Part shown: positions 1 through 61,646 of the stretch, in pieces | Layout: every line of letters starts with the position of its first letter | Position numbering within the stretch: position 1 is the stretch's first letter | NCBI GenBank assembly: GCA_001805445.1 | Contig: MHGF01000025.1 | Coordinates: forward strand, 338-64,337 | Reading direction: 5' to 3' | Length of the DNA: 64,000 bases | Source: Omnitrophica WOR_2 bacterium GWF2_43_52 | GTDB taxonomy: Bacteria; Omnitrophota; Gorgyraeia; Gygaellales; UBA12090 | Notes under the pieces: model-generated | Databases searched by the model: none | What the model was told of the DNA's origin: nothing | What the model saw: only the letters and a program-made list of their open reading frames with translations | Program-made: the position numbers and the translations under genes

Positions 1-558
1 TTAAAACAGTGCCGATGGACGACAGGGACTTTGCAAAATGGCTCAAATTTTCCTCATTTTGGCGAAAACGCCAAAATTGACTTCTCCGAAGTCAAAGATA
101 AGCTGAAAATTAACCAAGAAAAACAATCAAAACTGACGGACGCTTATCTGGAAAATTTGCTTGGTGAAGATGTCTATCGCGAGAAAAATTCAAGCCTTAG
201 AGATGAAGAAGAATCTTTGAAGAAACTCCTTGCAGGATATGAGCTTAGAGAGATTGAACGAGAACGGTCAGAGGGCTATATAAACAGAGTAAAAGAGTTT
301 CTTGATGGCTATGATGATAGCAAAGAAAAGATAGACTTTGCTACTAAAAAAAAACTTGCCGGGCTGCTTTTTAAAAACATCAAAATCGCCTCATGCCTTG
401 GCGGCCGTTTGCCCCAAAAAAGAATTTCATTTTCTCTTTTTGCCCCCTTTAATTTTTTGTTTTTAGAAACCGAAAGAAAATCGCAATGTCAAAAGAATCA
501 AAAGCTTATAAAAATTTGCCAAAAAAAGTCTACATCCGTACCTTCGGATGTCAGATGA
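1..558 (+). CDS. 3' part of a larger gene that enters the window from upstream. The C-terminal coiled-coil region resembles large serine recombinases. The true stop is uncertain because the reading frame stays open into the miaB start.
   Basis: Frame 1 is open from position 1 with no start codon in the window. The translation '...LTDAYLENLLGEDVYREK...FATKKKLAGLLFKNIKI' matches the pattern of the serine-recombinase C-terminal coiled-coil and final beta-strand. Confidence 0.35.
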   Translation, partial: LKQCRWTTGTLQNGSNFPHFGENAKIDFSEVKDKLKINQEKQSKLTDAYLENLLGEDVYREKNSSLRDEEESLKKLLAGYELREIERERSEGYINRVKEFLDGYDDSKEKIDFATKKKLAGLLFKNIKIASCLGGRLPQKRISFSLFAPFNFLFLETERKSQCQKNQKLIKICQKKSTSVPSDVR

Positions 559-1736
559 ACCTCAGGGATTCTGAAGTAATTGCGGGGCTGCTTTTGGAGG
601 GGGGATTTGGGGTGACGGAAGAAGAGGAAAAGGCTGACGCGGTTTTGTTTGTGACTTGTTCTGTGAGGCAGCATGCTGAGGATAAGGTTTGGTCGGAGAT
701 TGGGCGGTTTTCTAAAATGGTGCCTAAGCCGGTTATCGGGCTGGTTGGTTGTATGGCAGAAAACTATAAAGACAAAGCTTTTAAACGGATGCAGGGGATT
801 GATGTGGTGGTGGGGACGAATAATATCGGGGAAATTCCATATTTATTAAAAGAGGTGTTTGCTCATCAGCTCATTAGCTCATTAGCTCATCAGCCTTTTT
901 TAGCGGTAAGTAAAAAAGAGCGCGATGAGGTTGTGTATGAGTCTATGTTTCGTCAGGAAAAAGACAGTAGCTTTGTGGTGATTTCAGAGGGATGTGATAA
1001 TTTCTGCTCTTACTGTGTAGTGCCGTATGTGCGGGGAAGGCTAAGACATCGGAATTATAAGAATATTATCGCGGAGATAGAGCAAAATATAAAACAGGGA
1101 ATTGAGCGCGTTACTTTGCTTGGCCAGAACGTGAATGCGTATCAGTTCAAATCTGTCAGTCAATATCAGGAAATACGGATATTACCCCCTCCCTTGCCCT
1201 CCCCACATCAGGGGAGGGCATATCGTTCGCGGTCAATAGTTAATTTTATGCAATTATTAAAGCTGGTTAATGATATAGACGGTTTACGAGAATTCAGTTT
1301 TGTTACCTCTCATCCGAAAGACGCCTCAGTTGAGCTTTTTGAGGCTATGGCTAAGTTAGATAAGCTCAAAAAATATTTACACTTGCCATTTCAGTCAGGT
1401 TCGAATAGAATATTAGAGTTGATGAAACGCGGCTATACCAGAGAGCGCTATCTTCAATTAGCAGGAGAATATCGTAAGATAGTGCCCCAAGGTGAGCTTA
1501 CCACAGATATTATCGTGGGTTTTCCGAGCGAGACGGAAGAGGATTTTAAAGAGACCCTTGAACTCGTGCAAAAGGTAAGATTTAACGGCGCCTATATCTT
1601 TAAATACTCGCCCCGCCCGCATGCTAAGGCGGGCGAATTACCTGACGATGTGCCAAAGATAGAGAAAGAACGAAGGCATAGGATTTTATTAGAAACCCAA
1701 AAAAAGATTTCTAAGGAGTTAAAAGCTAAACAGTGA
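486..1736 (+). CDS. miaB: tRNA-i6A37 methylthiotransferase, a radical-SAM enzyme of the MiaB/RimO family
   Basis: An N-terminal MTTase domain with 'FGCQMN' and a radical-SAM 'CDNFCSYCVVP' motif. It sits next to miaA. It contains two in-frame repeat insertions, described in the findings. Confidence 0.8.
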   Translation: MSKESKAYKNLPKKVYIRTFGCQMNLRDSEVIAGLLLEGGFGVTEEEEKADAVLFVTCSVRQHAEDKVWSEIGRFSKMVPKPVIGLVGCMAENYKDKAFKRMQGIDVVVGTNNIGEIPYLLKEVFAHQLISSLAHQPFLAVSKKERDEVVYESMFRQEKDSSFVVISEGCDNFCSYCVVPYVRGRLRHRNYKNIIAEIEQNIKQGIERVTLLGQNVNAYQFKSVSQYQEIRILPPPLPSPHQGRAYRSRSIVNFMQLLKLVNDIDGLREFSFVTSHPKDASVELFEAMAKLDKLKKYLHLPFQSGSNRILELMKRGYTRERYLQLAGEYRKIVPQGELTTDIIVGFPSETEEDFKETLELVQKVRFNGAYIFKYSPRPHAKAGELPDDVPKIEKERRHRILLETQKKISKELKAKQ

Positions 1737-6684: not shown

Positions 6685-9600
6685 ATGAAATCACATTTGC
6701 TGCATAAAACTATTTCCCTATGGGTATCTTTTTGCCTCATTTTTACCCAATTCGCATTTGCCCAAGGGGTAGCCGAACTTAATGTATCAGAGTACTTTAG
6801 GCAAATACATACTAATGTACCTTTTGGTGATAAGCTGAGGCCGCCTCAGCTTAGGTATTTCTCTTATGATACTGTCACAGATGATTATAGGATTATTTTA
6901 GATAAGGGGGCAATAAAAGAGATATCAGAAACCGACGCGGCAGAAAAAGCGAAAACACTTTTAAGTTACTTTCTGATAGGGGTAACCCTCCCCAATGATA
7001 CATTCTGGGTCAACCTGAGGCCCGATGCTCCGGATACTATCATAGACTTTGAATTAGAGAAAACCGATATCGGGAGGATTCTTCTGGAAGCCGACCTGCA
7101 ACTCAAGAAAGATACGGCTCAATGCACCTCACCTCAAACGCCAGATGGTAAGCTCTATTGGGATAAGCTCTATCAGAAGGCAGGTGAGCTCTTTGGCTCT
7201 GAGAATATTACCATTCCTACCTTAACCCGTCCGTGGATAGTACCAGGGGAGATAATCGTAAGAGAAACAGATAATTCCGCCTACATTTACAAGGCAAGCC
7301 TCAAGGTATTGTTAGAAGAAGATTACCTCAAAAGCTCTCAGCTTTCAGCTGTCAGCGTTCAGCAGTATAATTTTAAAGACGAACGGCTAAAAGAGTTGAA
7401 TGAATACTCCACACAGCTTATCAGAGAACTTATTATTCCAAAGCTGACCAGAGAGGTTAATACTTCCCAAAGGTATGCCGCCTTGCGGCAGGTATTCTTT
7501 TCATTAGTGCTTTCTCGATGGTTTAAGGAAAGATTCCGGGGAAAGCAGGGCGCCTATGCGAAGCTAATTGACAGTAAGAATTTAACTAACCTTATTTCGC
7601 AAGAGCAGTGGTCAAAAAATACCTATTTTAATGAATATAAGGAATCATTTCAGCATGGCGAATATAATATAAAGGAAGGTGTAGCCACTCCTTATGGGCA
7701 AACGATACGGAGTTATGTGAGCGGAGGAATTGAATTGACAGGCGCAGCCAGCCCTTTAAATAGTAATAGCTTTAGGGCTGGAGAGGGCCAAAAAATTACT
7801 AACACAATGCTTACTCTGGCAGGAAATGGAAAAAATCCAAGCCTGCAATTTCCTGCGGTCACATCTTCGCCTTTAGGAAAGCCTGAAGAATATAACAATA
7901 AAACAAACAATATAATTAAAGAGATACGTGATGAGGCTTATAAGGTTCACAGTGGCCTCAAAACTATAATAGAAGCATTAAGGCTTAAAATTACTACAGA
8001 GGATAAAGCACATCAAGACATTGAAGCGGCATTGGATAATCTATCAAGTTGGCCGGGTATCTTGCCTGAAAGTACCGATATTAAGGCTATGGCTAAGGAA
8101 ATAGCGAAAGCATTAAGAATATTGAATAAATATTATCTTAGAGATTTAAAAGGGATACTTGAAAAAAGTGGTTTTGAGGAGCAGTTCTCTGCCATGATAC
8201 TGCGTATGGAAAAAATTATTCCCTTAAAAGAGCAGATTCCCGAAGCGCTTGATAACTTTATGGTTAAGTATAAAAGTAGTATTAACCAAGAGCAATTCCA
8301 AAAAGTAGAAGAACTGCGCCTCAAGGAAAGGCAAGAGTTAGAGAATAAGTACGATGATTTTATCCGTTTATGCGCGTATATGGAGGACCTTGTATCGCAG
8401 CTACGAGAACATGCACAGGAACCTGCGAAAGATTCGCTTTATTTTGATTTGGATGAGTGGCTTTCTTTGGAGTTTAGGGCGCAAATAGAAATGATTGAAA
8501 TAGTGGCTGTGGAAGCTGTGAAGGAAATCCATGGTAAGTTTCAGGAAAAAGTAAATGGAATGGAGCGGCAAAGGGAGGAGTTGGAAAATGATATTAAAAA
8601 TATTCACGACAAAATGAGCGCGGGTGTTTTAGAGCTTATTAATAGGTATAACGATTTAGCGCTGCCTTCATTTATGCCAGCGGGTGATGCCGCCGTTGTA
8701 AGCGAAGATGCGTTCAGCCTATTATTTTTAGAAAACAAAGATTTCAACCACTTGACGCAATTTCAATTTCTTTTGCTTTTTGCAAGTTATGCCTTGGGAA
8801 ATTACGAAATTACAAGGGATAAGAATATACAAAAAGCGTTTAAGGAGAAATCTTTTGCTGAAGGGTTAATTACATTATATAAGAGCGTTTATGATCTAGA
8901 TGAAAGGACAAAGAGCTTTGCTAAAGAGCCTTATACTCCAAATTATAATAAAGCTCTTAATCGTATTCTTATTGAAATGCAGAAAAGAAGTGAAAACTTA
9001 GAGAATAAAATCAGCGGTAATTTGGAATATGCCGTTACTAATGATATGCCTTTTGTGAGATTGCCATTTAGCTTAAGACAAGATAAAGATAATGATTTTA
9101 TAAGGAGCAATCTGCCTGAAGCGATAAGCAGGCTTGATAATTATTCCAAAGAGCTTGTAGCAGGATATGGTAAGTCAAGAGATAACAGTATGAGAAATCA
9201 TTTATTTTTATTAAACGTAATAGCTGTCAGCGCGAAGGTTGAGATGGAGTTGTTGATGAGTGAGATTAACGGCAATGCTGAAGCTGCGTCTCCCTTGAGG
9301 CAAGAGAATCAGGAGCAAGATGAGTTAGAAAGGATTAAGAAAGAGTTTCTTCCGCCTCTTGGCGCAGGCAGGCTTACTTTTAAAGATGCAGCAAATAAAA
9401 TTGTTCATGAAATTAGCCAAGTCATAATGGAAAAGATCAATTCTACTGATGAGAACGCAGCATCAAAATTATATAGGGAGAAGCCGTCACCTTACAGTAG
9501 CCTCAAAACGTACCTAGAGGCTTTAGGCTTTACTATTAATGAAAAAGTGGACATGCAGAAGCTGCAAAACGAGATAGAAGCTCTTATCGGGGTAATAAAG

Positions 9601-10407
9601 GATTACGGCTTTGCAGCTAAGCTGGCGGATGAGATTAAAGCTTTGGACACACTTAGTAATAGATTGATTTCACAAGGCGAACAGTTTGCTGAGGAGCTGA
9701 GTCAGTTAAAGGTGACGCCTGCATATTTGGGAAGCCTTATAAAAGAGAGGCCTGTCGCTCTTTATTATCAATTTGCTGAGCTGGTCAAGTTAAATGATCA
9801 AAGCTATCCTGATAATTTTTCTTTGATTCTAGTCCCGTTGCCTCATGACGAGGGTAGTTTTTTAATTCAATTGCAAACACCGCAGCGCAGTATTGTAAAT
9901 ATAAATGTTTATAAAAATGGTGCTATTAAAGTTTCGCGCAATGATATTTTAAACAATTTAGACGTGAGGGTTTTAGCCATGAATATTGCAGAGGCTTTGC
10001 AAAAAGGCGTTGCTTCTTCTGGGATTCAAGGCCAGCCGCAAGGGGATATTGGAGGTATTGACTTTCGTGCGATGAATATATTGACGCAGCCAATGGGAAA
10101 CCTTTCCGGGTTGGATTTTAGTTTACCTGTGTTGAGTAGGGCAACGTTGGAAGACTTTGATATGGAGAAAGAATTAGAGCAGATTAGGAATATGGTAAAA
10201 GGCGGGATAATTCCCTCTGGCCAAAGAGTGAAGGAGTATGTAGCGGCCTGTTTTCAAAAAGGGCAAATGAAGGAAAAGGAGGATGAATTGATGTTTTGTT
10301 TGCTGGAAATCTGCATGTTGCAAGAGGAGCAAGTAGTAGAAAGCTCGGCAGCATTGAGAGAATCAATAGTTATCGTAGATACAGGAAGATACGTTTTAAA
10401 AAAGTAA
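6685..10407 (+). CDS. Large secreted, mostly alpha-helical protein of unknown function (1240 aa)
   Basis: A long ORF with a clear signal peptide and RBS context. No motif I recognise. Confidence 0.6.
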   Translation: MKSHLLHKTISLWVSFCLIFTQFAFAQGVAELNVSEYFRQIHTNVPFGDKLRPPQLRYFSYDTVTDDYRIILDKGAIKEISETDAAEKAKTLLSYFLIGVTLPNDTFWVNLRPDAPDTIIDFELEKTDIGRILLEADLQLKKDTAQCTSPQTPDGKLYWDKLYQKAGELFGSENITIPTLTRPWIVPGEIIVRETDNSAYIYKASLKVLLEEDYLKSSQLSAVSVQQYNFKDERLKELNEYSTQLIRELIIPKLTREVNTSQRYAALRQVFFSLVLSRWFKERFRGKQGAYAKLIDSKNLTNLISQEQWSKNTYFNEYKESFQHGEYNIKEGVATPYGQTIRSYVSGGIELTGAASPLNSNSFRAGEGQKITNTMLTLAGNGKNPSLQFPAVTSSPLGKPEEYNNKTNNIIKEIRDEAYKVHSGLKTIIEALRLKITTEDKAHQDIEAALDNLSSWPGILPESTDIKAMAKEIAKALRILNKYYLRDLKGILEKSGFEEQFSAMILRMEKIIPLKEQIPEALDNFMVKYKSSINQEQFQKVEELRLKERQELENKYDDFIRLCAYMEDLVSQLREHAQEPAKDSLYFDLDEWLSLEFRAQIEMIEIVAVEAVKEIHGKFQEKVNGMERQREELENDIKNIHDKMSAGVLELINRYNDLALPSFMPAGDAAVVSEDAFSLLFLENKDFNHLTQFQFLLLFASYALGNYEITRDKNIQKAFKEKSFAEGLITLYKSVYDLDERTKSFAKEPYTPNYNKALNRILIEMQKRSENLENKISGNLEYAVTNDMPFVRLPFSLRQDKDNDFIRSNLPEAISRLDNYSKELVAGYGKSRDNSMRNHLFLLNVIAVSAKVEMELLMSEINGNAEAASPLRQENQEQDELERIKKEFLPPLGAGRLTFKDAANKIVHEISQVIMEKINSTDENAASKLYREKPSPYSSLKTYLEALGFTINEKVDMQKLQNEIEALIGVIKDYGFAAKLADEIKALDTLSNRLISQGEQFAEELSQLKVTPAYLGSLIKERPVALYYQFAELVKLNDQSYPDNFSLILVPLPHDEGSFLIQLQTPQRSIVNINVYKNGAIKVSRNDILNNLDVRVLAMNIAEALQKGVASSGIQGQPQGDIGGIDFRAMNILTQPMGNLSGLDFSLPVLSRATLEDFDMEKELEQIRNMVKGGIIPSGQRVKEYVAACFQKGQMKEKEDELMFCLLEICMLQEEQVVESSAALRESIVIVDTGRYVLKK

Positions 10408-11433: not shown

Positions 11434-11562
11434 GATTAGAGAAGAATTTTTTACGTTTACCGTTCACCGCTTACCGTGTACCGTTATAATCGTACATACT
11501 CTACGGTAAACGGTTCGCGGTTAACGGTACACGAAACGTGATTCTTCAAGAAGGATAGGTAA

Positions 11563-18736: not shown

Positions 18737-18912
18737 AGAAGAGAACAGAAGACAGAGTACAGAAAACAGAAATTAGTAGAAATATACAGCAAAGCGAGGA
18801 AATTGATTGAGCTCATTGTTGGTAGAATTTCCACGAATTTCAATAAATTTCTGCATATTTCTGTAATCTGTTCTCTGTTATCTGTTATCTAACCGAACGA
18901 AGTGAGGTTATA

Positions 18913-19187: not shown

Positions 19188-19562
19188 GTGCGAAAATTTT
19201 TTCTTTATTGGTTTCCTGTTTATAGTTATATGGCGCTTATTTTCTATCTTTCTTCCTTAAGCCGTCCCCCCGAACAGTTCTCTCTTTTTGAATGGGATAA
19301 ACTTAACCATTGCCTTGAATATGCCATTTTGGGGCTGCTCCTTATAAGGGCATTGAATGAACACTATGGCAAGGTGGGTTTCCTTCAGCTGCAAATTATC
19401 GCTTTTATCATCGCGGCCGTTTATGGGGCAAGCGATGAGTTTCATCAAAGCTTTATTTTTGGCAGAAGCGCGAGTTTCCTTGATTGGATTACCGATATGA
19501 TAGGCGCGGCTATCGGCGCGTTTTTTATTCTTAAGCGAAAGAAGGCCTCATGGCAGAAATAA
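19188..19562 (+). CDS. VanZ-like membrane protein
   Basis: Small 4-transmembrane protein with VanZ-like motifs. Confidence 0.5.
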   Translation: MRKFFLYWFPVYSYMALIFYLSSLSRPPEQFSLFEWDKLNHCLEYAILGLLLIRALNEHYGKVGFLQLQIIAFIIAAVYGASDEFHQSFIFGRSASFLDWITDMIGAAIGAFFILKRKKASWQK

Positions 19563-20863
19563 GCGCGTTTTGCGGTTTGCGATATAACCCCACGCTCGTT
19601 AAAAAAATAGAAAAAGTAGTATGCCCGCCCTATGACGTTATTTCCCCGGAGCAGCAGAATAAACTCCATGCATCAAGCCGCGATAATTTTATCCGTCTCA
19701 TTTTAGGTAAGGCAAAGCAAAGTGATACCTCCAGGCATAATAAATATACCCGCGCGGGAGATTTCTTAAAGGAGGCTATCAGAAAAAAAGTATTCGTTTG
19801 CGACAGCCTGCCAGCTATCTATCTCTATGAACAGGAGTACAGGGTAGCCGCTCAGGGCTATAAGCGCCTTGGTTTTATTGCCCTTCTTCGGCTTGAGCCG
19901 ACAGGAAAAGGGGTAGTGTTTCCTCACGAGAAGACTTTTTGTAAGCCCAAACAGGACAGGCTTTCCCTGCTTAAGGCGACGCAGGCAAATCTCTGCCCTA
20001 TCTTTGGGCTCTATGATGCCGATGATGCCGCTGTCGACGCGCGCCTCAGAAAGCATGCCAAGGCAAAACCGCTCTATGATTTTTTCTTTGAGGGAATAAG
20101 AAATAAACTTTGGAAAATAGAAGACCGGGAATTTATCCGCGGGCTTACGCAAGCGATGGCCGATAAACAGATTTTTATCGCTGACGGCCATCATCGCTAT
20201 GAAGTAGCCAGCCTTTATCATAGGCTAGCGCGCAAGCGTACCGTGGCGCGCTCGCGGAGTGATTATGTGATGATGTATTTTTGTAACCTCAGGAACCAAG
20301 GCCTCAGAGTGTTGCCAACGCATAGGGTAGTACGTAATGTCAGCCAGGAAATTATTTCTCAACTACCGGCATTGTTAGAAAACTATTTCAAGCTAAGCCC
20401 TTGCGCGAATTTACCCGAGCTTCTTCTCCAGCTTAAAAAAAGGGCAGGCCGGCGCGCCTTCGGACTTTTTTTAGGAGCAAACCGGTTTTACCTGCTTGAT
20501 GTTAGGGCTACTCCGGCAAAAAAGAAACCCGTGGTTTCCCAAGGAGATTATTGCTATAATAACTTAGATGTTGTTTTGCTGCATAGTTTAGTTTTTAGCA
20601 AACTACTGAAACTAAAAAAGCAGCATCATCACGATGCGGATATTGTGTATGCCCGGGATGAAAAGCAAGCCGTTAGTTTAGTAAAAAGCAAAAAATACCA
20701 GGCAGCATTTTTTATGAATCCGCCAAGCCCTCGGGAAATCAGCTCTATCGCGCGCTGCTTTAAAAAGATGCCGCATAAGTCAACGTATTTTTATCCTAAG
20801 CCGGTTTCAGGGCTGGTGATAAACATGCTCAAGAAAGAGCTGCCAGTAGAGAGTAGAGAGTAG
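19550..20863 (+). CDS. DUF1015-family protein
   Basis: N-terminal 'FCGLRYNP...PPYDVIS' is characteristic of DUF1015. Confidence 0.6.
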   Translation: MAEISAFCGLRYNPTLVKKIEKVVCPPYDVISPEQQNKLHASSRDNFIRLILGKAKQSDTSRHNKYTRAGDFLKEAIRKKVFVCDSLPAIYLYEQEYRVAAQGYKRLGFIALLRLEPTGKGVVFPHEKTFCKPKQDRLSLLKATQANLCPIFGLYDADDAAVDARLRKHAKAKPLYDFFFEGIRNKLWKIEDREFIRGLTQAMADKQIFIADGHHRYEVASLYHRLARKRTVARSRSDYVMMYFCNLRNQGLRVLPTHRVVRNVSQEIISQLPALLENYFKLSPCANLPELLLQLKKRAGRRAFGLFLGANRFYLLDVRATPAKKKPVVSQGDYCYNNLDVVLLHSLVFSKLLKLKKQHHHDADIVYARDEKQAVSLVKSKKYQAAFFMNPPSPREISSIARCFKKMPHKSTYFYPKPVSGLVINMLKKELPVESRE

Positions 20864-20915
20864 AAAGTAGAAAGTAGAAAGTAGTAACTAAATTACTTAC
20901 TACTCTCTACTATTT
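20845..20915. terminator. Hairpin built from AGTAGAR heptamer tandem repeats and their inverted copy, between the DUF1015 gene and accD
   Basis: 'agtagagagtagagagtagaaagtagaaagtagaaagtag' ... 'cttactactctctactattt'. Confidence 0.45.
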
Positions 20916-20938
20916 ACTCCCGAAGGTAGTGAGGGAAG

Positions 20939-25328: not shown

Positions 25329-25497
25329 CGCGCCGGGAATATGGAGAGTAACCGGCCAGTTATCAGTGGCCAAAGGAAATGGGTACTGTCCCCGCCTGCG
25401 GCGGGGCCACCCATTTCCCCCGTTTAGCGACCGATTACTATGGAGATAATTTTCTGCTTGCAAAGGGGGATGTTTTAGGTTACAATACACCTCTCTT

Positions 25498-28711: not shown

Positions 28712-28932
28712 TTATTGCCGGGAAACCTTATTTTCAGTGTTTAAAATTGATTTTTCCAGTGTAAACTAATGCATTGTTACATAAGTCCTTTGATAGATAT
28801 GATGGTAAAAATGGGTCCTGTCCAGGTTATGTTTTCGCCCCGCCTACGGCGGGGCTCAAACACAACCCGGCCACCAATTTTTACAGCTATTTTAAGAAAC
28901 TTATGTAACAATGTACTAATCAAGGAAAGAAA

Positions 28933-34523: not shown

Positions 34524-34982
34524 ATCCTTGAGAAAATATTCATAGCATCTCTTTAGCATCGATGTAATTCTTCCCGCATGTTAGAGAGTGTCTTTGTACT
34601 CACACGCTCTCTTATCGTAAAGATTCCCGCAATAAAAGATAACCCAGAATAGTTTTATTATTACACTGTGATAAGAAATTTGGGTCACTGTGTAGTAGTG
34701 CTCCGTGACATAAATTCTTACTATCTGCAACACTTCACTTGCCAGCGGGGGTGGCAAGGTTGTGTTTGAGCCCCGCCGTAGGCGGGGCGAAAACATAACC
34801 TTGACAGGACCTCCGCCCTATATTCAAACATGATAGCGCAATGCCAAAATCTAATGTCACAGCGCAGCAGGATAATAGAGGTAATTTCATGATAATGTAA
34901 AAATATGTCATGATATGTAAATATTCTTCTTGACAATTGTGCTAACTATTATAAAATGTAACCTATGGTGTCAGAGGCTCTT

Positions 34983-43032: not shown

Positions 43033-45696
43033 ATGAACACAGACCTTATCCGTCAGAAATACCTTAATTTCTTTGCCAAGAAAGGCCACAAAGTCATTGC
43101 TTCATGTTCACTTGTCCCCCAGGATGATCCTACGCTTCTTTTTACGACCGCGGGCATGAATCAATTTAAAAAGGAATTCCTGGGACAGGTGACGGCCTAT
43201 CGGCGAGCAACTACCTGCCAGCGTTGTTTGAGGACCGACGACTTGGATAAGGTAGGCCATACCGCCTATCACCATACCTTATTCGAAATGCTGGGAAACT
43301 TTTCCTTTGGCGATTATTTCAAGGAAGAAGCGATTGTCTGGGCGTGGGAATTCCTAACGAGCGAGTTAAAGCTTAATCCTGAGGTGCTTTGGGTATCGGT
43401 ATACCAGGAAGATAAGGAAGCATTCACGCTCTGGAAGCATAAGGTTGGTTTTCCTGAGGAAAGGATTGTGAAATTAGGGGCAAAGGATAATTTTTGGCCT
43501 TCCAATGCCATAGAAGACGGCCCTAACGGGCCGTGCGGGCCATGTTCAGAAATATTTTTTGATTATGGCAAAGATACCGGCTGTAAAAAATCTGATTGTA
43601 AACCCGGATGTGATTGCGGAAGGTTCGTTGAAATATGGAATTTAGTTTTTACCCAGTTTAACCGTAAAGATAAAGGAATCGTGGAACCTTTGCCAAGCAA
43701 AAATATAGATACTGGGATGGGCTTAGAGCGCATGGCTTCGGTTATGCAGGGAGTAAAGAGTAATTTTGATATCGATATCTTTAAGCCGATTATTAAGGCA
43801 ATTCTAGGTTATCTGCCATTTCCGCCGCAGGCGGATCAGCCTACGGCTGAGCCCATAGACTATCGGCTGATACATGCAATCGCCGACCATATTCGCGCCA
43901 TAACTTTTGCCATGTATGACGCGGTTATGCCTTCAAATGAACAAAGAGGCTATGTGGTGCGAAAGCTTATCCGTAAGGCCGAGTTTCACGGCTATACCCT
44001 GGGGATACGGGAGCCATTTTTATACCGGCTAAGCCCAGTTGTCGGGCAAACGTTTAAAACCACCTATCCCGAGCTTCCCCAACACTTGGAGAAAATCAAC
44101 GAGATCCTGGAGAGGGAAGAGAAGAATTTTATAACAACCTTACAAGAAGCTCCTCAGATTCTAAAGCGTGAATTTAAAGAGACACAAAAAAAAGGCAGCG
44201 GCCATAGCGCCTTTAAGCTCCATGATACCTACGGTATTCCCTTGGAAATTACTAAGAGCTGGGCTAAAGAGCGCGGTTTTGATATAGATGAAGACGAGTT
44301 TCAGTATGACTTAAAGCAGCAACAAGAGCGTTCAAAAAAATTCAGTAAGCTCAGTGACGGCGTATTTGTGGGAGAGGCACTGAAACTAGAGCTTAAGCCA
44401 AGCAGGTTTTTAGGCTACCAGAAGCGCCTGGTGAAAGACGCGAAAATCTTAAAAATCATTAAGGACGCTCACGTGGTAAAATCAGCGCGGGCACCCGATA
44501 CCTGCCAGCTTATTCTTGATAAAACGCCTTTTTACGCGGAATCCGGAGGACAGATTGGCGATAGAGGAGTAATAACCAAAGGAAAAAATGTTTTTACAGT
44601 GTCTGACGTGCAAAAGCACGGGGCATTATTTCTGCACCGCGGTACGTTAGAAAGCGGTAAGCTCAAAGTCAATGACAGGGTTTCCCTGGAGGTCGACAGC
44701 GCGTTTCGCCAGGCAGTCAGCCGCGCGCATACCGCGACCCATCTTTTGCAGGCCGCGTTGCGAGAGGTCCTGGGCAGCCACAGTAAGCAGGCAGGCTCCT
44801 TAGTTGAAGCTGATCGCCTGCGCTTTGACTTTATCCATTTTGAAAAAATATCGCCCAATGACGTAAAGAAGATCGAAGCTCTTGTAGAAAAGAATATTCT
44901 CTTAAGCCACGAGGTTACCGTAAAACAAACAACATTAGCCAACGCGAAAAAAGATAAGGCGATTGCCTTATTTGAAGATAAATACGAAGAGAACGTGCGT
45001 ATGGTTAGTGTCGGCACGTATTCAAAAGAGCTTTGCGGGGGAACACACCTGGAGAGTTCATCACAGGTAGGTTTATTCAAAATCACCGCGGAAAGTTCTA
45101 TAGCCAAAGGGATCCGCAGGATTGAAGCCTTAACCGGAGAGCTTGCCTGGGATAATCTTCGGCAGGCAAGCGAGCAGGTGGCAAGAATTTCCGAGGTATT
45201 CAAGATTAGCGATGATAAAATAATTCCTTTTATTGAGGAGAAACTTACTGCGCTTGCGCGCCTGGAAAAGGAATCTGCCTGGCTGCGCCTTGAAATGCAT
45301 AAGCGTGACACCAATAATCTCATCCAGGATGCCGAGGATATTAATGGAATGAAGCTCCTTTGTCAAAAGTATCAGGATGTGGATATCGGGTTGTTACGTC
45401 AGATAATGGATGTGCTCAAATCAAAAGTAGCTTCATATGCCTTTTGCCTGGGGGCCGCGGAGAGCCTCAAGGCAACGCTTATCATTGGACTCTCAGATGA
45501 TGCCGTCAGAAAGGGGCTTGATGCTTCGCGGATTATTAAGGACGTCGCGTCTTTTATTAACGGCAGCGGAGGAGGCCGGCCAACTATGGCGCAGGCCGGA
45601 GGAAGCAACCCTCAAGGCCTGGATAAGGTCATGGAAAGATTTAAGGAGATCGTCAGGAATACGGATAAGATCGTACGGCCTGGCGCGGGCCTATAA
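43033..45696 (+). CDS. alaS: Alanine--tRNA ligase
   Basis: Class II core, editing domain ('HTATHLL') and a C-terminal DHHA1 domain. Confidence 0.95.
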   Translation: MNTDLIRQKYLNFFAKKGHKVIASCSLVPQDDPTLLFTTAGMNQFKKEFLGQVTAYRRATTCQRCLRTDDLDKVGHTAYHHTLFEMLGNFSFGDYFKEEAIVWAWEFLTSELKLNPEVLWVSVYQEDKEAFTLWKHKVGFPEERIVKLGAKDNFWPSNAIEDGPNGPCGPCSEIFFDYGKDTGCKKSDCKPGCDCGRFVEIWNLVFTQFNRKDKGIVEPLPSKNIDTGMGLERMASVMQGVKSNFDIDIFKPIIKAILGYLPFPPQADQPTAEPIDYRLIHAIADHIRAITFAMYDAVMPSNEQRGYVVRKLIRKAEFHGYTLGIREPFLYRLSPVVGQTFKTTYPELPQHLEKINEILEREEKNFITTLQEAPQILKREFKETQKKGSGHSAFKLHDTYGIPLEITKSWAKERGFDIDEDEFQYDLKQQQERSKKFSKLSDGVFVGEALKLELKPSRFLGYQKRLVKDAKILKIIKDAHVVKSARAPDTCQLILDKTPFYAESGGQIGDRGVITKGKNVFTVSDVQKHGALFLHRGTLESGKLKVNDRVSLEVDSAFRQAVSRAHTATHLLQAALREVLGSHSKQAGSLVEADRLRFDFIHFEKISPNDVKKIEALVEKNILLSHEVTVKQTTLANAKKDKAIALFEDKYEENVRMVSVGTYSKELCGGTHLESSSQVGLFKITAESSIAKGIRRIEALTGELAWDNLRQASEQVARISEVFKISDDKIIPFIEEKLTALARLEKESAWLRLEMHKRDTNNLIQDAEDINGMKLLCQKYQDVDIGLLRQIMDVLKSKVASYAFCLGAAESLKATLIIGLSDDAVRKGLDASRIIKDVASFINGSGGGRPTMAQAGGSNPQGLDKVMERFKEIVRNTDKIVRPGAGL

Positions 45697-47037: not shown

Positions 47038-47637
47038 ATGAGAAAACAAAGAAAAGCAAAAGTTGAGAGAAGAACAACAGAAACCACTATTGGCCTCGCG
47101 ATTAACTTAGATGGCAGGGGGAAATCGAAAATTAAAACGCCGATAGGTTTTTTGAGCCATATGCTTACCCTTTTTGCTAGACACGGATTATTTGACCTTG
47201 AGCTAAAGGCTACTGGGGATACAGAGGTGGATCTTCATCATACGAATGAAGATATTGGGATATGCCTAGGCCAGGCGCTCCAAAAGGCGCTCAAGGATAA
47301 GGCAGGTATCAGAAGGTTTGGTTTTGCCTCGGTGCCTATGGATGAGGCGCTTGTAGAACTAAGCCTGGATATCAGCGGAAGGCCTTATTTAGCGTTTATC
47401 GTTAACCGTTTACCGTTTACCGCTACTGGGAAAGAATACAGTATGAATTATTTAAAGCAGTTCCTGCAGGCACTGGTGAATACCTCGGGGATAACCATGC
47501 ATGTGGAAATCCTCTATGGGGAAGATTTGCATCACTGTATTGAAGCGGTGTTTAAGGCTTTAGGAAGAGCTTTACGGGAGGCGGTAAGTATCGATAGCCG
47601 TATTCAAGGAATTTTATCTACAAAAGGAAGATTGTAG
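47038..47637 (+). CDS. hisB: Imidazoleglycerol-phosphate dehydratase
   Basis: IGPD motifs ('HHTNED'). Confidence 0.85.
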   Translation: MRKQRKAKVERRTTETTIGLAINLDGRGKSKIKTPIGFLSHMLTLFARHGLFDLELKATGDTEVDLHHTNEDIGICLGQALQKALKDKAGIRRFGFASVPMDEALVELSLDISGRPYLAFIVNRLPFTATGKEYSMNYLKQFLQALVNTSGITMHVEILYGEDLHHCIEAVFKALGRALREAVSIDSRIQGILSTKGRL

Positions 47638-47659: not shown

Positions 47660-47815
47660 CAAAATAACCAAACACCAATTTCCAATAACCAAATAATAAC
47701 CAATGTGCCAATGACCAAACTATTTGTTTATTGGGTATTGTCACGCAAAGCTGGTTTCTTGTCTCTATGAGATAATGGGCAGGTGAGTTTATTTGGTTAT
47801 TGGTGATTTATGCTC
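47660..47815. repeat. MITE-like long imperfect hairpin repeat (copy 1 of the 'AACCAAACACCAATTTCCAATAACCAAA' family)
   Basis: A 35-bp block nearly identical to 52822-52860. The arms CCAATAACCAAATAA and TTATTTGGTTATTGG pair. Confidence 0.6.
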
Positions 47816-47885
47816 AATAATTTTTTCGCAGCAGTAAAATTGTTTGGCATGTCCTCTGCTTGTTGTGTAATAGGGTATTGTTATT

Positions 47886-48560
47886 ATGATTTCAGTTATC
47901 GACTATGGTATGGGAAATTTGCGCAGTGTGGCAAAGGCGTTAGAAGCCGCGGGTGCGGGGGATGTTTTGGTGACTTCAGATATCAAGACAATTGACAAAG
48001 CAGATAAGATCGTCCTCCCCGGTGTTGGCGCGATGCAGGATGCCATGAAAGAGCTTAAGCGGTTGGATTTAATAAAGGTGATTAAAGAAAGTATTCTGAA
48101 AAAACCGTTTCTAGGTATTTGCCTCGGGCTGCAGTTACTTTTTACCGAAAGTGAAGAGGGGCACAAGACGCGAGGGTTGGGGGTATTTAAAGGAAAGGTT
48201 AAACGCTTTAGTTCTGACATGAAAGCCCCGCATATGGGGTGGAATCAAATTGTACGAAGGACGAAGGACGTCCCTTCGACTTGGTTCGACTACGCTCACC
48301 ACAAGTCGCTCAGGGCAGGGGGACGAGAGACGAAAAAAAACATAAATCTGTTAAAAAATATCCCTGATGCTGCGTATTTTTATTTCTGTCATTCATACTA
48401 TGTTGTTCCGGATGATAAAGGCCTGATTGCGACAACTACCGAGTATGGCATTGACTTTGTATCTTCAATTTGTAAGGGTAATCTTTTTGCCTGTCAGTTT
48501 CATCCTGAGAAAAGCCAAAGTGTGGGTTTAAAGCTTTTAGAAAATTTTGTAAGGCTATAG
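47886..48560 (+). CDS. hisH: Imidazole glycerol phosphate synthase glutaminase subunit
   Basis: 'VLPGVGA' and a catalytic Cys 'GICLGLQ'. It contains an in-frame insert of about 30 aa. Confidence 0.85.
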   Translation: MISVIDYGMGNLRSVAKALEAAGAGDVLVTSDIKTIDKADKIVLPGVGAMQDAMKELKRLDLIKVIKESILKKPFLGICLGLQLLFTESEEGHKTRGLGVFKGKVKRFSSDMKAPHMGWNQIVRRTKDVPSTWFDYAHHKSLRAGGRETKKNINLLKNIPDAAYFYFCHSYYVVPDDKGLIATTTEYGIDFVSSICKGNLFACQFHPEKSQSVGLKLLENFVRL

Positions 48561-49374: not shown

Positions 49375-49818
49375 ATGAGAGGGAAAATTTTCATTATAGC
49401 GGGGATGTTAGGATTGGCAGGATGCGCGACTGCCCATAAAAATAGTGATATGGAAATGCAGAGCCTACGTACGCATGTTAGTGAGTTAGAATCACAGCTT
49501 CAGCAAAAGGATAATCAGGTTATTGCCCTCCAGGAAGCCTTGGATACCGAATCTAAGGAAAGGACAAGCCTTGCAACCCAGCTCTCAACCTTAACTGAGA
49601 AGTATAAGTCGGTTTCCCATACAGGTTCAGTGAAGCAAATTCAAATTGCTCTCCAGAACGCGGGTTATGATATGGGCAAGATTGATGGGGTAATGGGTGG
49701 TAAAACCCGTAGCGCGGTGAGAGATTTTCAAAAGGCCAATAGTTTGAAGGTTACCGGGAAGGTGGACAAAGAGACTTGGCTTTTGCTGCGGCAATATCTG
49801 CATAAAAAGGTAAAATAA
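49375..49818 (+). CDS. Lipoprotein with a coiled-coil and a PG_binding_1 (peptidoglycan-binding) domain
   Basis: 'LAGC' lipobox and a C-terminal 'GKIDGVMGGKTRSAVRDFQ' peptidoglycan-binding motif. Confidence 0.6.
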   Translation: MRGKIFIIAGMLGLAGCATAHKNSDMEMQSLRTHVSELESQLQQKDNQVIALQEALDTESKERTSLATQLSTLTEKYKSVSHTGSVKQIQIALQNAGYDMGKIDGVMGGKTRSAVRDFQKANSLKVTGKVDKETWLLLRQYLHKKVK

Positions 49819-50023
49819 CTATTCGTTAAGAATACGGAAATCTAGTGCGCTGTTACAAAAGTTATCAAACAGCGCACTAGGGGGTGTGGGGGAGATTGTC
49901 CACCACGCTTGGGGGGTGCTCAGCGATCCGCCGTAGGCGGAGAGCGCCGAAGCCCGCCGTAGGCGGGCTAGCGGAAGTGCGAAATCAATATTAAGAATTA
50001 ATTTGACAGAGCACTAGGCAACG

Positions 50024-50845
50024 ATGTTAACCAAAAGGATTATACCCTGCCTTGACGTTAAAGACGGAAGGGTGGTAAAAGGAGTCAAGTTTTTAAATTT
50101 AAAAGACGCGGGTGACCCGGTTATCATTGCCAAACGCTATGAAGAAGAGCAGGCCGATGAACTTGTATTCCTGGATATTACCGCAAGCGCGGAAAACAGA
50201 AATATTATTCTCGATGTGGTCCGGCGCACCGCGGAAAATGTCTTTATGCCGCTTACTGTCGGAGGAGGGATACGCGCTATAGCTGACATCCGCGCGTTGC
50301 TGAATGCCGGCGCGGACAAGGTTTCTATCAATACGGCGGCAGTAAAGAGGCCGGCGCTCATCAAAGAGGCAGCGGATAAATTCGGCAGTCAGTGTATTGT
50401 GGTGGCGATTGACGCTAAAAGGGTCAATAGTCAATGGCCTATGGCCAATGGTCAAACGAAGAAGCTATCGACTATCGACTATCGATTATCGACTAAGAAG
50501 TGGGAAGTGTATATTAACGGAGGCAGAACGCCCACAGGGTTAGATGCTGTAAAATGGGCGAAGAAGGCTGAAGCCTCAGGAGCGGGTGAAATACTTTTGA
50601 CCAGCATGGATGCTGATGGGACAAAAAACGGTTATGACCTTGAGCTGACGAACGCTATAACAACTGCAGTGAATATTCCACTCATCGCATCGGGAGGCGC
50701 GGGGAAAAAAGAGGATTTTTATACTGTATTGACTGAAGCAGGCGCGGATGCCGCGTTAGCCGCATCGCTTTTTCACTATCAGGAGTTACGCATTAAAGAG
50801 GTTAAGAGCTATTTACAGAAAAAAGGAGTATTGGTGCGATGGTAA
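50024..50845 (+). CDS. hisF: Imidazole glycerol phosphate synthase cyclase subunit
   Basis: HisF motifs. It contains an in-frame insert of about 21 aa. Confidence 0.85.
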
Positions 50846-52821: not shown

Positions 52822-52965
52822 GAAAATAACCAAACACCAATTTCCAATAACCAAACAATACCCAATCACCAATAGCCAAATTTCACGCATGCTGTTTGGT
52901 TATTGATAATAGGGTATTGGGGTTTGTTTGATTATTGTATCTTGATAATTGGTTATTTCGGGCTC
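52822..52965. repeat. MITE-like hairpin repeat (copy 2 of the 'CCAATAACCAAA' family)
   Basis: Shares a 35-bp block with 47662-47697 and has a complementary TGTTTGGTTATTG arm. Confidence 0.6.
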
Positions 52966-52990
52966 AAGATATTACACGAGGAGGATAATA

Positions 52991-53236
52991 ATGTCAGTAG
53001 CAATCAGGATGAGGAAAGTCGGTAAAGGTATAAAGAAAAATTTCTATTTTAGGGTTGGGGTCATTGACGAGCAAAAAAGCCGGGATGGCAAAATGCTGGA
53101 AGATATCGGCGTCTATGAGCCTGCCAAAAAAGAAAATAATTTCAGGATTAACAAGGAGCGCTTTGACTACTGGAAATCAAAGGGCGCGGTTATTTCTGAT
53201 ACGGTAAGAAGCCTGGTTAAGAAAAGCAGTAAGTAG
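52991..53236 (+). CDS. rpsP: 30S ribosomal protein S16
   Basis: 'VAIRMRKVGKG...FYFRVGV' and a GAGGAGG RBS. The start was moved to the internal ATG at 52991. Confidence 0.85.
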   Translation: MSVAIRMRKVGKGIKKNFYFRVGVIDEQKSRDGKMLEDIGVYEPAKKENNFRINKERFDYWKSKGAVISDTVRSLVKKSSK

Positions 53237-53294
53237 TAAGTAGAGAGTAGATAGTAGTAAGTAGATAGTAGCAAGTAAAAGAAAGGAAGATCAA

Positions 53295-58870: not shown

Positions 58871-58987
58871 CCCCACCTACCAATTCAACCTCGTAGGTTG
58901 TAGGAAAACGTCGACGGGTAATTCTGACAACCTACGAGGTTGAATTGGTTGACAACCTACGAGGTTGAATTGGTTTTGGAAGATGAG

Positions 58988-60829: not shown

Positions 60830-60851
60830 TTAACTAAAGATATTGTGACTA

Positions 60852-60930
60852 CTGATAAAGGTAAACCCAGAGTAATCTGGGGGCGCAAAGCAATGGGGTC
60901 CTGATAAAGGATTGCCCGGCTGCCAAAGGG
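60852..60930 (+). ncRNA. Candidate c-di-GMP-I (GEMM) riboswitch aptamer
   Basis: 'AAAGGUAAACC-CAGA-GUAA-UCUGG-GGGCGCAAAGC...GGGGUCCUGAUAAAGG...GCCCGGCUGCC' compared with the Vc2/GEMM core 'GGCAAACC-stem-GNRA-stem-GGACGCAAAGCC...'. Confidence 0.55.
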
Positions 60931-61163: not shown

Positions 61164-61646
61164 ATGTTTACAAAAAATAAGAAAGGTTTTACCTTAGTTG
61201 AAATTATGATTGTGGTGGCAATCATAGCGCTTTTGGCGGCAATATCAATTCCCGGGCTTTTACGTTCGCGTATGAATGCCAATGAGTCAAATGCTATCGG
61301 TAGTGTAAAGACATTAAGCACTGGTGCTGAGACGTTTAGGTCAGCTCAGGCTGCTCCACTGTATCCTGCTGATATAGCAGTTGACCTTGTTGGTGCTGTT
61401 CCTCCGTATGTCACGGGTTTTGTTGGCGCAGCAGATCCTGTTACAAAAAGCGGCTATACCTTTAGTATAGGACGAAATACAGCGAATACCTATACTGTTA
61501 GGGCAAATCCAACAACTGTAGGAACAACAGGAAACCGTGCCTTTTGCGTTGATGAAACAGGCCTTATGTATGCAACAACGGCAGCGGCAGGCTTTGTAGA
61601 TACTGCAGCATGTATTGGACAGGGAGGTGCTACACAATTACAGTAG
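61164..61646 (+). CDS. Type IV (major) pilin
   Basis: N-terminal 'KKGFTLVEIMIVVAIIALLAAI', the class III signal with Glu5. Confidence 0.85.
   Translation: MFTKNKKGFTLVEIMIVVAIIALLAAISIPGLLRSRMNANESNAIGSVKTLSTGAETFRSAQAAPLYPADIAVDLVGAVPPYVTGFVGAADPVTKSGYTFSIGRNTANTYTVRANPTTVGTTGNRAFCVDETGLMYATTAAAGFVDTAACIGQGGATQLQ

Follow-up and report, generated by a model that had tools for sequence, protein, structure and literature searches.

In-frame heptanucleotide-repeat DNA in a hypervariable loop of HisH from an Omnitrophota bacterium

Introduction

The hisH gene of Omnitrophica WOR_2 bacterium GWF2_43_52 (Omnitrophota), which encodes the glutaminase subunit of imidazole glycerol phosphate synthase, carries an in-frame insert of repeat-containing DNA within an otherwise intact coding sequence. 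The gene lies in a stretch of 64,000 nt (GenBank assembly GCA_001805445.1, contig MHGF01000025.1, positions 338 to 64,337 of the forward strand), hereafter the window, whose own coordinates are used throughout. The loop that holds the insert is hypervariable among relatives, differs by in-frame insertions and deletions within a sister species, and belongs to a region in which tandem arrays of 7-nt units are far more numerous than chance would provide. The insert is probably a cassette of heptamer repeats and hairpins, translated and by now decayed, that arose locally, evolves fast and is largely neutral in a permissive loop of the protein. An earlier sequence-only reading of the same DNA, which proposed an in-frame insert of repetitive DNA in hisH as in hisF and miaB, is supported, with caveats on the size of the insert, its palindromic character and the link between the three genes.

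The hisH gene and its product

The gene occupies positions 47886..48560 of the plus strand and encodes a protein of 224 aa, with the frame kept across the insert. Its assignment is borne out by a full-length profile match, by a Cys-His-Glu triad together with the expected fold, and by its place in a his operon. Against the TIGR01855 (HisH) profile the protein reaches 230.1 bits (cutoff 105.4), the match being split in two after residue 125, and in an alignment of 38 homologues (alignment A1) the catalytic residue C79 is invariant and H206 and E208 are nearly so. AlphaFold2, run on 38 homologues, gives a model with a mean predicted local distance difference test score (pLDDT) of 85, with blocks of 90-97 outside the insert; its top Foldseek match is the HisH chain 4gud_A (target-normalised template modelling score 0.91, root-mean-square deviation 1.8 Å), and the HisH chains of 1gpw and 7ac8 are also retrieved. 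The genes of the his cluster are adjacent, in the order hisD-hisB-hisH-hisA-(peptidoglycan-binding open reading frame, ORF)-hisF-hisI, and close HisH homologues carry the NCBI names Omnitrophica or Omnitrophota, in keeping with a host that is an uncultured member of the Omnitrophota from groundwater.

The identical HisH protein is found on 24 contigs from JGI, NCBI and ENA assemblies, including GCA_001804465.1, which rules out an assembly artefact, and the hisH DNA is identical in the six assemblies compared out of these 24 contigs. The loci L001-L006 do not amount to a population sample, being one and the same sequence apart from scaffold N-runs and a single chimeric stretch in hisD.

An in-frame insert in place of a short turn

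Comparison with an insert-free orthologue and with HisH structures in the PDB delimits the insert as residues V123-K150 (VRRTKDVPSTWFDYAHHKSLRAGGRETK), encoded by nt 48252-48335 of the plus strand; these 84 nt stand in place of a turn of about 2-6 residues. In a phmmer search of the PDB, residues 3-122 and 154-224 align to residues 6-128 and 135-203 of Vibrio cholerae HisH (4gud), leaving the 31 query residues 123-153 opposite only six (129-134), and the spacing between the HMGWN and YFCHSY motifs is 45 residues here against 19 in the insert-free Omnitrophota orthologue (P0008, locus L090; 198 aa), a difference of 26. The net gain is thus 25-26 aa, or ~78 nt. The sequence-only reading had counted 49 residues between the two motifs against a canonical 17; the in-frame insert that it described there is real, but these figures, and the gain of about 32 aa that they imply, are overstated.

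Residues 128-150 have pLDDT values below 50 and no secondary structure in the AlphaFold2 model, and the insert is accordingly predicted to be disordered. HisH most likely works as an ordinary enzyme with a disordered surface loop, to whose catalysis the insert most likely contributes nothing. An intein or intron is ruled out by the size of the insert, only 78 nt, and a known RNA family by the lack of any Rfam match there. An NCBI third-party annotation record of the same protein (P0006; 140 aa, 100% identical) is annotated as partial and stops inside the insert, after ...DYAHHK; its truncation may reflect a contig break caused by the repeat.

Repeat content of the insert DNA

Read as DNA, the insert consists of GTACGAA GGACGAA GGACG, then TCCCTTCGACTTGGTTCGACTACGCTCACCACAAGTCGCTCAGGGCAGG, then GGACGAG AGACGAA AAAAAAC, all on the plus strand. 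The left-hand part is an array of ACGAAGG repeated 2.4 times with 100% match (48254..48270), detected both by Tandem Repeats Finder (TRF) and by a period-7 scan and translated as R-R-T-K-D. The right-hand part is a run of degenerate heptamers read directly from the sequence (48321..48341). Between them lies a unique segment (48271..48320) with weak inverted repeats, namely CGTCCCTTCG against CGAAGGACG and CGACTTG...CAAGTCG. The string cgaaggacgaaggacgtcccttcg, to which attention had first been drawn, is present at 48255-48278, and the pentamer tcgac recurs as described, at 48276 and 48286. The direct repeat seen in it exceeds chance, as judged by the perfect TRF array and by the seven period-7 arrays of the window against 0.05 expected.

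The near-palindrome perceived in the same DNA does not hold up: the predicted folding energy of the 84-nt insert, -23.4 kcal/mol, equals the average over its shuffles, -23.4 kcal/mol (z = 0.00), and 96 of 200 shuffles fold equally well, while the 111-nt region around it reaches only z = -1.28. Searched for within the 64-kb window with up to three mismatches allowed, neither the insert nor its array has a second copy; the insert core (48271-48320) is likewise single in the window and absent from the other loci compared, in which blastn-short matches are to the heptamer part only.

The heptamer itself is common elsewhere. More than 120 metagenome contigs, most of them with ~62% GC, contain the array 17-mer ACGAAGGACGAAGGACG, and in 30 of 120 such contigs (L095-L214) an inverted (CTTCGTC)n arm lies no more than 120 nt from a (GACGAAG)n array, which yields hairpins with heptamer stems. 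Neither this type of heptamer nor the architecture of arrays paired into hairpins is therefore peculiar to this genome; both are widespread. Open frames span 43 of 90 metagenome (GACGAAG)n arrays, a proportion to be read with the knowledge that such frames are common by chance at ~62% GC. The metagenome contigs with (GACGAAG)n have a median GC content of 62%; some of them hold several arrays, and one holds at least 18 units.

The same loop in relatives

In the alignment of 38 homologues, and in the loops extracted from 120, the stretch just after HMGWNQI is hypervariable. The loop measures 18-48 residues in the 98 of 120 homologues in which both flanking motifs could be located, many of the loops are peptides with a 7-aa period (RTTHDAR-RTT, RITNHES-RITN, KSKIKNQ), and something is retained there in most of the clade. 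By way of control, GTDB species-representative genomes were searched with the HisH alignment; each of the best 80 matches, nearly all from other phyla, is 576-633 nt long, which is the canonical length.

The closest relative (P0001, locus L087) is 78% identical over the whole protein and 87% outside the loop, against 33% within it. More generally, relatives that are 86-95% identical outside the loop show 0-38% identity inside it, having an unrelated loop sequence or none. Protein-level conservation of the insert in relatives without repetitive DNA, the outcome that would have spoken against a repeat origin, is clearly absent, since the loops of relatives are unrelated and their DNA consists of heptamer arrays with or without hairpins. 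The loop DNA of L093 is pure (CGCACGA)x4.5 and that of L094 pure (AAAATCA)x~9. In L088 it consists of (AATATCA)x3 and two hairpins of the form TCCCGC...GCGGGA, followed by A-rich heptamers; in L091 of the hairpins CCCG...CGGG and TCCGCC-TAC-GGCGGA, again followed by A-rich heptamers; and in L092 of heptamers around CCCGCC...GGCGGG. The locus L090 has no insert at all.

In L087 the loop DNA comprises ACGAATGACGGAGGACG, two strong hairpins and CGAAGGGCGAAGGACG, of which the first corresponds to the left heptamers of the window and the last to the right-hand ones. The flanking heptamers of window and L087 are alike at ~19 of 23 positions, whereas the central 44 nt agree at ~30% and cannot be aligned. 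The L087 and L088 inserts are far more stable when folded than their shuffles (z = -5.1 and -5.2, respectively), which is not the case for those of L091 and L092. A hairpin design YCCGCC-(GTA/TAC/GCA)-GGCGGR is shared by the hisH loops of L087, L091 and L092.

Turnover within a sister species

Two loci of one sister species, L088 and L215, share 99.1% identity across a stretch of more than 10 kb; their hisH genes differ by 10 substitutions and one clean indel of 45 nt (15 aa). The indel (L088:5916-5960) is the double hairpin TCCCGCAAAAGCGGGA-TCCCGCCTATTATTAAATGATGAGCGGGA and is placed exactly between heptamer units; it shows neither terminal inverted repeats nor a target-site duplication, and none of the Omnitrophota hisH loci checked holds a further copy of the cassette. 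In a third locus, L216, hisH is the same as in L215 apart from 27 nt deleted within the heptamer array. This species thus has at least three loop alleles, of 48, 33 and 24 residues, and all alleles seen in it are in frame.

Heptamer arrays and hairpins across the window

Under a uniform criterion, seven period-7 arrays are observed in the window against 0.05 expected from Markov-2 random sequences, with other periods at background level and periods 8-12 giving one array or fewer, and about 20 of 42 TRF rows have a period of 7, 14 or 21. Per 100 kb, the window has 10.9 period-7 arrays and sister Omnitrophota loci have 31.6, compared with 1.9 for hisH loci from other phyla. Of the seven arrays, that of hisH is the weakest and shortest. 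Between genes, long hairpins in which one arm is a heptamer array and the other the reverse complement of that array lie at 11450-11528, 18740-18890, 20845-20918, 47661-47824 and 52824-52958, and array sequences recur between loci, a 44-nt stretch at 47661 being 95% identical to one at 52823. Short GC-rich hairpins of the form CCGCC N3-12 GGCGG, mostly with a GTA or TAC loop, number seven in the window against 0.49 expected (14-fold); none of the seven lies inside the hisH insert.

DNA of the same kind is also found in frame in other genes. An insert in hisF (50423..50495, plus strand), evident from TRF and from the sequence, is made of (CAATGGC)x3.4 and (CTATCGA)x4.4, and the HisF alignment gives 0-25 extra aa in the loop after AIDAKR among four Omnitrophota. 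The hisB gene carries a TRF array (TTTACCG)x5 at 47388..47422 (plus strand), in a segment that is variable in the HisB alignment with no change in length. In miaB (486..1736, plus strand), a hairpin scan and the translation reveal an in-frame GC hairpin of 9 bp, GCCCTCCCC-ACATCA-GGGGAGGGC, at 1196..1219, and residues 14-411 match profile positions 1-372 only, an excess of ~26 residues. The inserts in hisF and miaB had been taken as the same phenomenon as that in hisH: the architecture is indeed the same, but no sequence is shared. A further in-frame double hairpin, TCCGCC-GCA-GGCGGA followed by TCAGCC-TAC-GGCTGA, lies in alaS at 43821..43851 (plus strand) and encodes part of FPPQADQPTAE.

Another miaB hairpin, at 1612-1633, was discounted as an insert, as it lies in native-looking coding sequence (the YSPRP... 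region). The miaB product matches positions 1-372 of the 437 of TIGR01574, and its C-terminal (TRAM) part may be missing or divergent.

Origin of the insert

The reading that we favour, and consider probable, is that of a locally generated heptamer-and-hairpin cassette tolerated in a permissive loop. Short repetitive DNA of this kind fills the intergenic regions of this Omnitrophota genome, and would survive inside a gene only where its total length is a multiple of three, where it holds no stop codon and where the protein tolerates it; in HisH, the tolerant place would be a turn, that of the excursion after the HMGWN strand. The 7-nt units would expand, contract and be homogenised by slipped-strand mispairing, and short GC-rich hairpin modules would be gained or lost between units. 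Such local slippage and module turnover would make the loop change far faster than the rest of HisH. The copy in the window would be old and decayed: its left side has 2.4 perfect units, the units on its right are degenerate and its middle has lost the ability to fold well. The insert with its frame and repeats, the variability of the loop, the in-frame indels of the sister species and the excess of period-7 arrays are observed; that slippage is at work, that the loop is neutral and that the copy decayed from an ancestor with hairpins are what we infer from these patterns. Heptanucleotide repeats are the most abundant class of long simple sequence repeats (SSRs) in prokaryotes, and polymerase slippage has been proposed as their cause (PMC4679880, summarising Mrazek 2007).

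Several points weigh against this account. The GC-rich hairpin modules are left unexplained by slippage alone, and so is the peptide SPAKAGSR, with its hairpin TCCCGC-AAAA-GCGGGA, which occurs at this loop in two clades less than 84% identical (P0004 and P0009). Neither change seen in the sister species is a simple 7-nt step, the 27-nt deletion in L216 not being a multiple of 7, and the window's own strain shows no turnover, its hisH being identical in all assemblies compared. Lastly, the Trp of HMGWN is an interface hinge residue in the Thermotoga maritima enzyme, and the loop may have an effect on allostery.

As the main rival to this account, the insert, or at least its hairpin core, could be a miniature mobile element transposed into hisH, akin to Rickettsia palindromic elements (RPEs), to repetitive extragenic palindromes (REPs) and the REPINs that they form, or to cyanobacterial small dispersed repeats (SDRs), with the arrays as a preferred target or a by-product. 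Clean presence or absence of the 45-nt double hairpin between strains 99.1% identical would fit such an origin, as would the common flanks and unrelated centres of the window and L087 copies, which look as if a cassette had been swapped. The YCCGCC-(GTA/TAC/GCA)-GGCGGR design, enriched 14-fold in the window, in frame in alaS and present in the loops of L087, L091 and L092, points the same way, together with the dispersed copies in the window (a 62-nt pair 95% complementary and the 44-nt pair 95% identical) and the recurrence of SPAKAGSR in two clades. The insert core, however, has no second copy in the 64 kb or at the other loci compared, and the L088 cassette none in the Omnitrophota hisH loci checked; the 45-nt indel lacks terminal inverted repeats and a target-site duplication; the window copy is not significantly structured; and no transposase was identified in the limited sequence covered, no genome-wide search for one having been made. 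Transposition strikes us as rather unlikely.

Since nothing in the insert is conserved and all alleles seen are in frame, the readings that give it a function as a protein loop, as an RNA structure or as a switch are weak. An adaptive insert would be a loop that modulates the HisH-HisF pair or binds a partner, or an element of his-operon mRNA structure acting in stability, processing or attenuation. In favour of an adaptive role, the L087 and L088 inserts fold strongly, most clade members keep something at the loop, and the loop begins a few residues past the Trp of HMGWN, an interface residue in the T. maritima enzyme. Sequence, length and structure are nevertheless all unconserved, with fold z values from 0.0 to -5.2 and with orthologues that have pure arrays or nothing; AlphaFold2 predicts disorder and Rfam has no family at the insert; and the same kind of DNA appears in hisF, hisB, alaS, miaB and intergenic regions. 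Adaptation of either sort is, in our judgement, highly improbable. That the array is a contingency locus, in which gain or loss of a 7-nt unit shifts the frame and switches hisH off and on, is scarcely credible: the unit length is not a multiple of three, orthologue arrays reach ~9 units and the P0006 record of the identical protein ends inside the insert, but only 2.4 perfect units exist here, the hisH DNA is identical in the six assemblies compared, all sister-species alleles are in frame and hisH is a housekeeping gene within an operon.

Comparison with known repeat systems

The cassette reading places the insert closest to two kinds of known DNA. The first is that of heptanucleotide repeats, such as the cyanobacterial STRRs (repetitive sequences built of short tandem repeats), the TAACTGA repeats of Beggiatoaceae, Cyanobacteria and Bacteroidetes, and the long SSRs of Mrazek and colleagues (2007). 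Like the arrays of the window, these are head-to-tail 7-nt units in excess of chance, mainly intergenic, with several unit sequences per genome, and the hisH array has the same head-to-tail arrangement, short as it is. STRRs are reportedly tolerated even within a functional gene, that for the RNase P RNA (Vioque 1997). Unlike STRRs and long SSRs, the Omnitrophota arrays stand in frame inside hisH, hisF and hisB, at strain-variable loops, and are combined with GC-rich hairpin modules, the intergenic ones forming long hairpins with reverse-complementary arrays. Published examples of heptamer arrays come from Cyanobacteria, Beggiatoaceae and Bacteroidetes, where they occasionally overlap the ends or interiors of genes (PMC4679880).

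The second is that of selfish repeats within genes. RPEs are short, selfish-looking repeats found in frame in unrelated metabolic genes, translated and apparently compatible with fold and function (PMC10969869). The hisH insert resembles them as an in-frame repeat that leaves the rest of its gene intact and sits where the structure is permissive. It differs in that RPEs measure ~150 bp and form defined multi-copy families, whereas the insert is 78-84 nt long, is partly made of tandem heptamers, shows no significant palindromic folding (z = 0.00), unlike its orthologues in L087 and L088, and has no second copy within the 64-kb window.

The hairpins of the window, for their part, may be likened to REPs and REPINs, as short GC-rich imperfect palindromes, often paired and well above chance (PMC3116915). 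A GTA or TAC loop is present in four of the seven window hairpins and in the hisH hairpin of L091, and CCGCC-GTA-GGCGG contains GTAG. REPs, by contrast, are extragenic inverted doublets near a gene for a REP-associated tyrosine transposase (RAYT), while the modules of the window are 15-30 nt long and some are in frame in genes; no RAYT was identified among the few window ORFs scanned, in which no search aimed at RAYT was made. The SDRs of Nostoc, as reportedly described by Elhai and colleagues in 2008, are tiny hairpin-forming units, present or absent at orthologous sites of close relatives and tied to repeat-rich contexts; the Omnitrophota cassettes would resemble them in this.

A full-text literature search returned no paper combining 'Omnitrophota' with 'heptanucleotide'. 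As far as the literature searched shows, in-frame heptamer and hairpin inserts are undescribed for Omnitrophota, and resemble both heptanucleotide SSRs or STRRs and in-frame selfish repeats.

Other features of the window

A 62-nt inverted pair (28814-28875 and 34750-34811), 95% complementary, has a CCCCGCC-TAC/GTA-GGCGGGG hairpin in each copy and brackets ~5.9 kb that include two genes of the UDP-glucose/GDP-mannose dehydrogenase family; a left flank, AAATGGGTnCTGTCC, related to the flank of the pair, recurs at 25377. Arrays of the AGTAGAG/AAGTAGA type at 20845-20884 and 53223-53281 are the sites within which the 3' ends of a DUF1015 gene (19550..20863) and of rpsP (52949..53236) fall, and gene callers have given the S16 product a length of 75, 81 or 95 aa in assemblies whose DNA is the same there. 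At 58879-58975, a 25-nt unit, TGACAACCTACGAGGTTGAATTGGT, stands as two perfect tandem copies, and an inverted one (100% complementary over 23 nt) lies just upstream of them; the repeats lie at the junction of two ORFs and overlap the predicted start of the downstream one (58940). An ORF of 1240 aa (6685-10407, plus strand) has no Pfam match and contains the repeats AGCTTTC x4.4 (7333-7363) and a ~27-29-nt unit x2.5 (7403-7472).

Upstream of hisF, the region 49843-49969 has 52% GC and holds a hairpin with a 13-bp stem, CTAGTGCGCTGTT...AACAGCGCACTAG, as well as two CCGCC-GTA-GGCGG hairpins; in two public assemblies (L002 and L005), scaffold N-runs fall exactly there. A motif of this region, TAGTGCGCTGT, is also found after the hisB stop codon, at 47635. 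The small PG_binding_1 ORF between hisA and hisF (49375-49818) is kept at the same position in L088, L090 and L091, and the L088 species has, in addition, a ParE toxin gene and a small upstream ORF inserted between hisA and hisF. The sole Rfam hit of the window at gathering level is a cyclic di-GMP (c-di-GMP-I) riboswitch aptamer (RF01051) at 60850-60927 on the plus strand, with 55 bits against a gathering threshold of 35, upstream of an ORF at 61164..61646.

Implications

Repeats whose unit is not a triplet, in this case of 7 nt, and tiny hairpin modules can sit in genes for essential enzymes with the frame always kept, and can turn over between strains that are 99% identical. Such loci are a natural experiment on the question of which protein loops tolerate arbitrary sequence. 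They also call for care in annotation and alignment, as inserts of this kind look like lineage-specific domains and, in two assemblies, fall at scaffold gaps. The findings point to a mutational process with a 7-nt period in an uncultured phylum, alleles of whose strains are present in public groundwater metagenomes.

A bolder proposal, which we regard as doubtful, is that Omnitrophota, and perhaps many environmental bacteria with (GACGAAG)n / (CTTCGTC)n hairpins, possess an active mechanism that writes 7-nt arrays and drops tiny GC-hairpin cassettes preferentially into existing arrays, so that the same loops of essential enzymes would be rewritten in frame repeatedly. If true, such a mechanism would act as a natural engine for diversifying loops and would amount to ultra-small mobile DNA of a new class.

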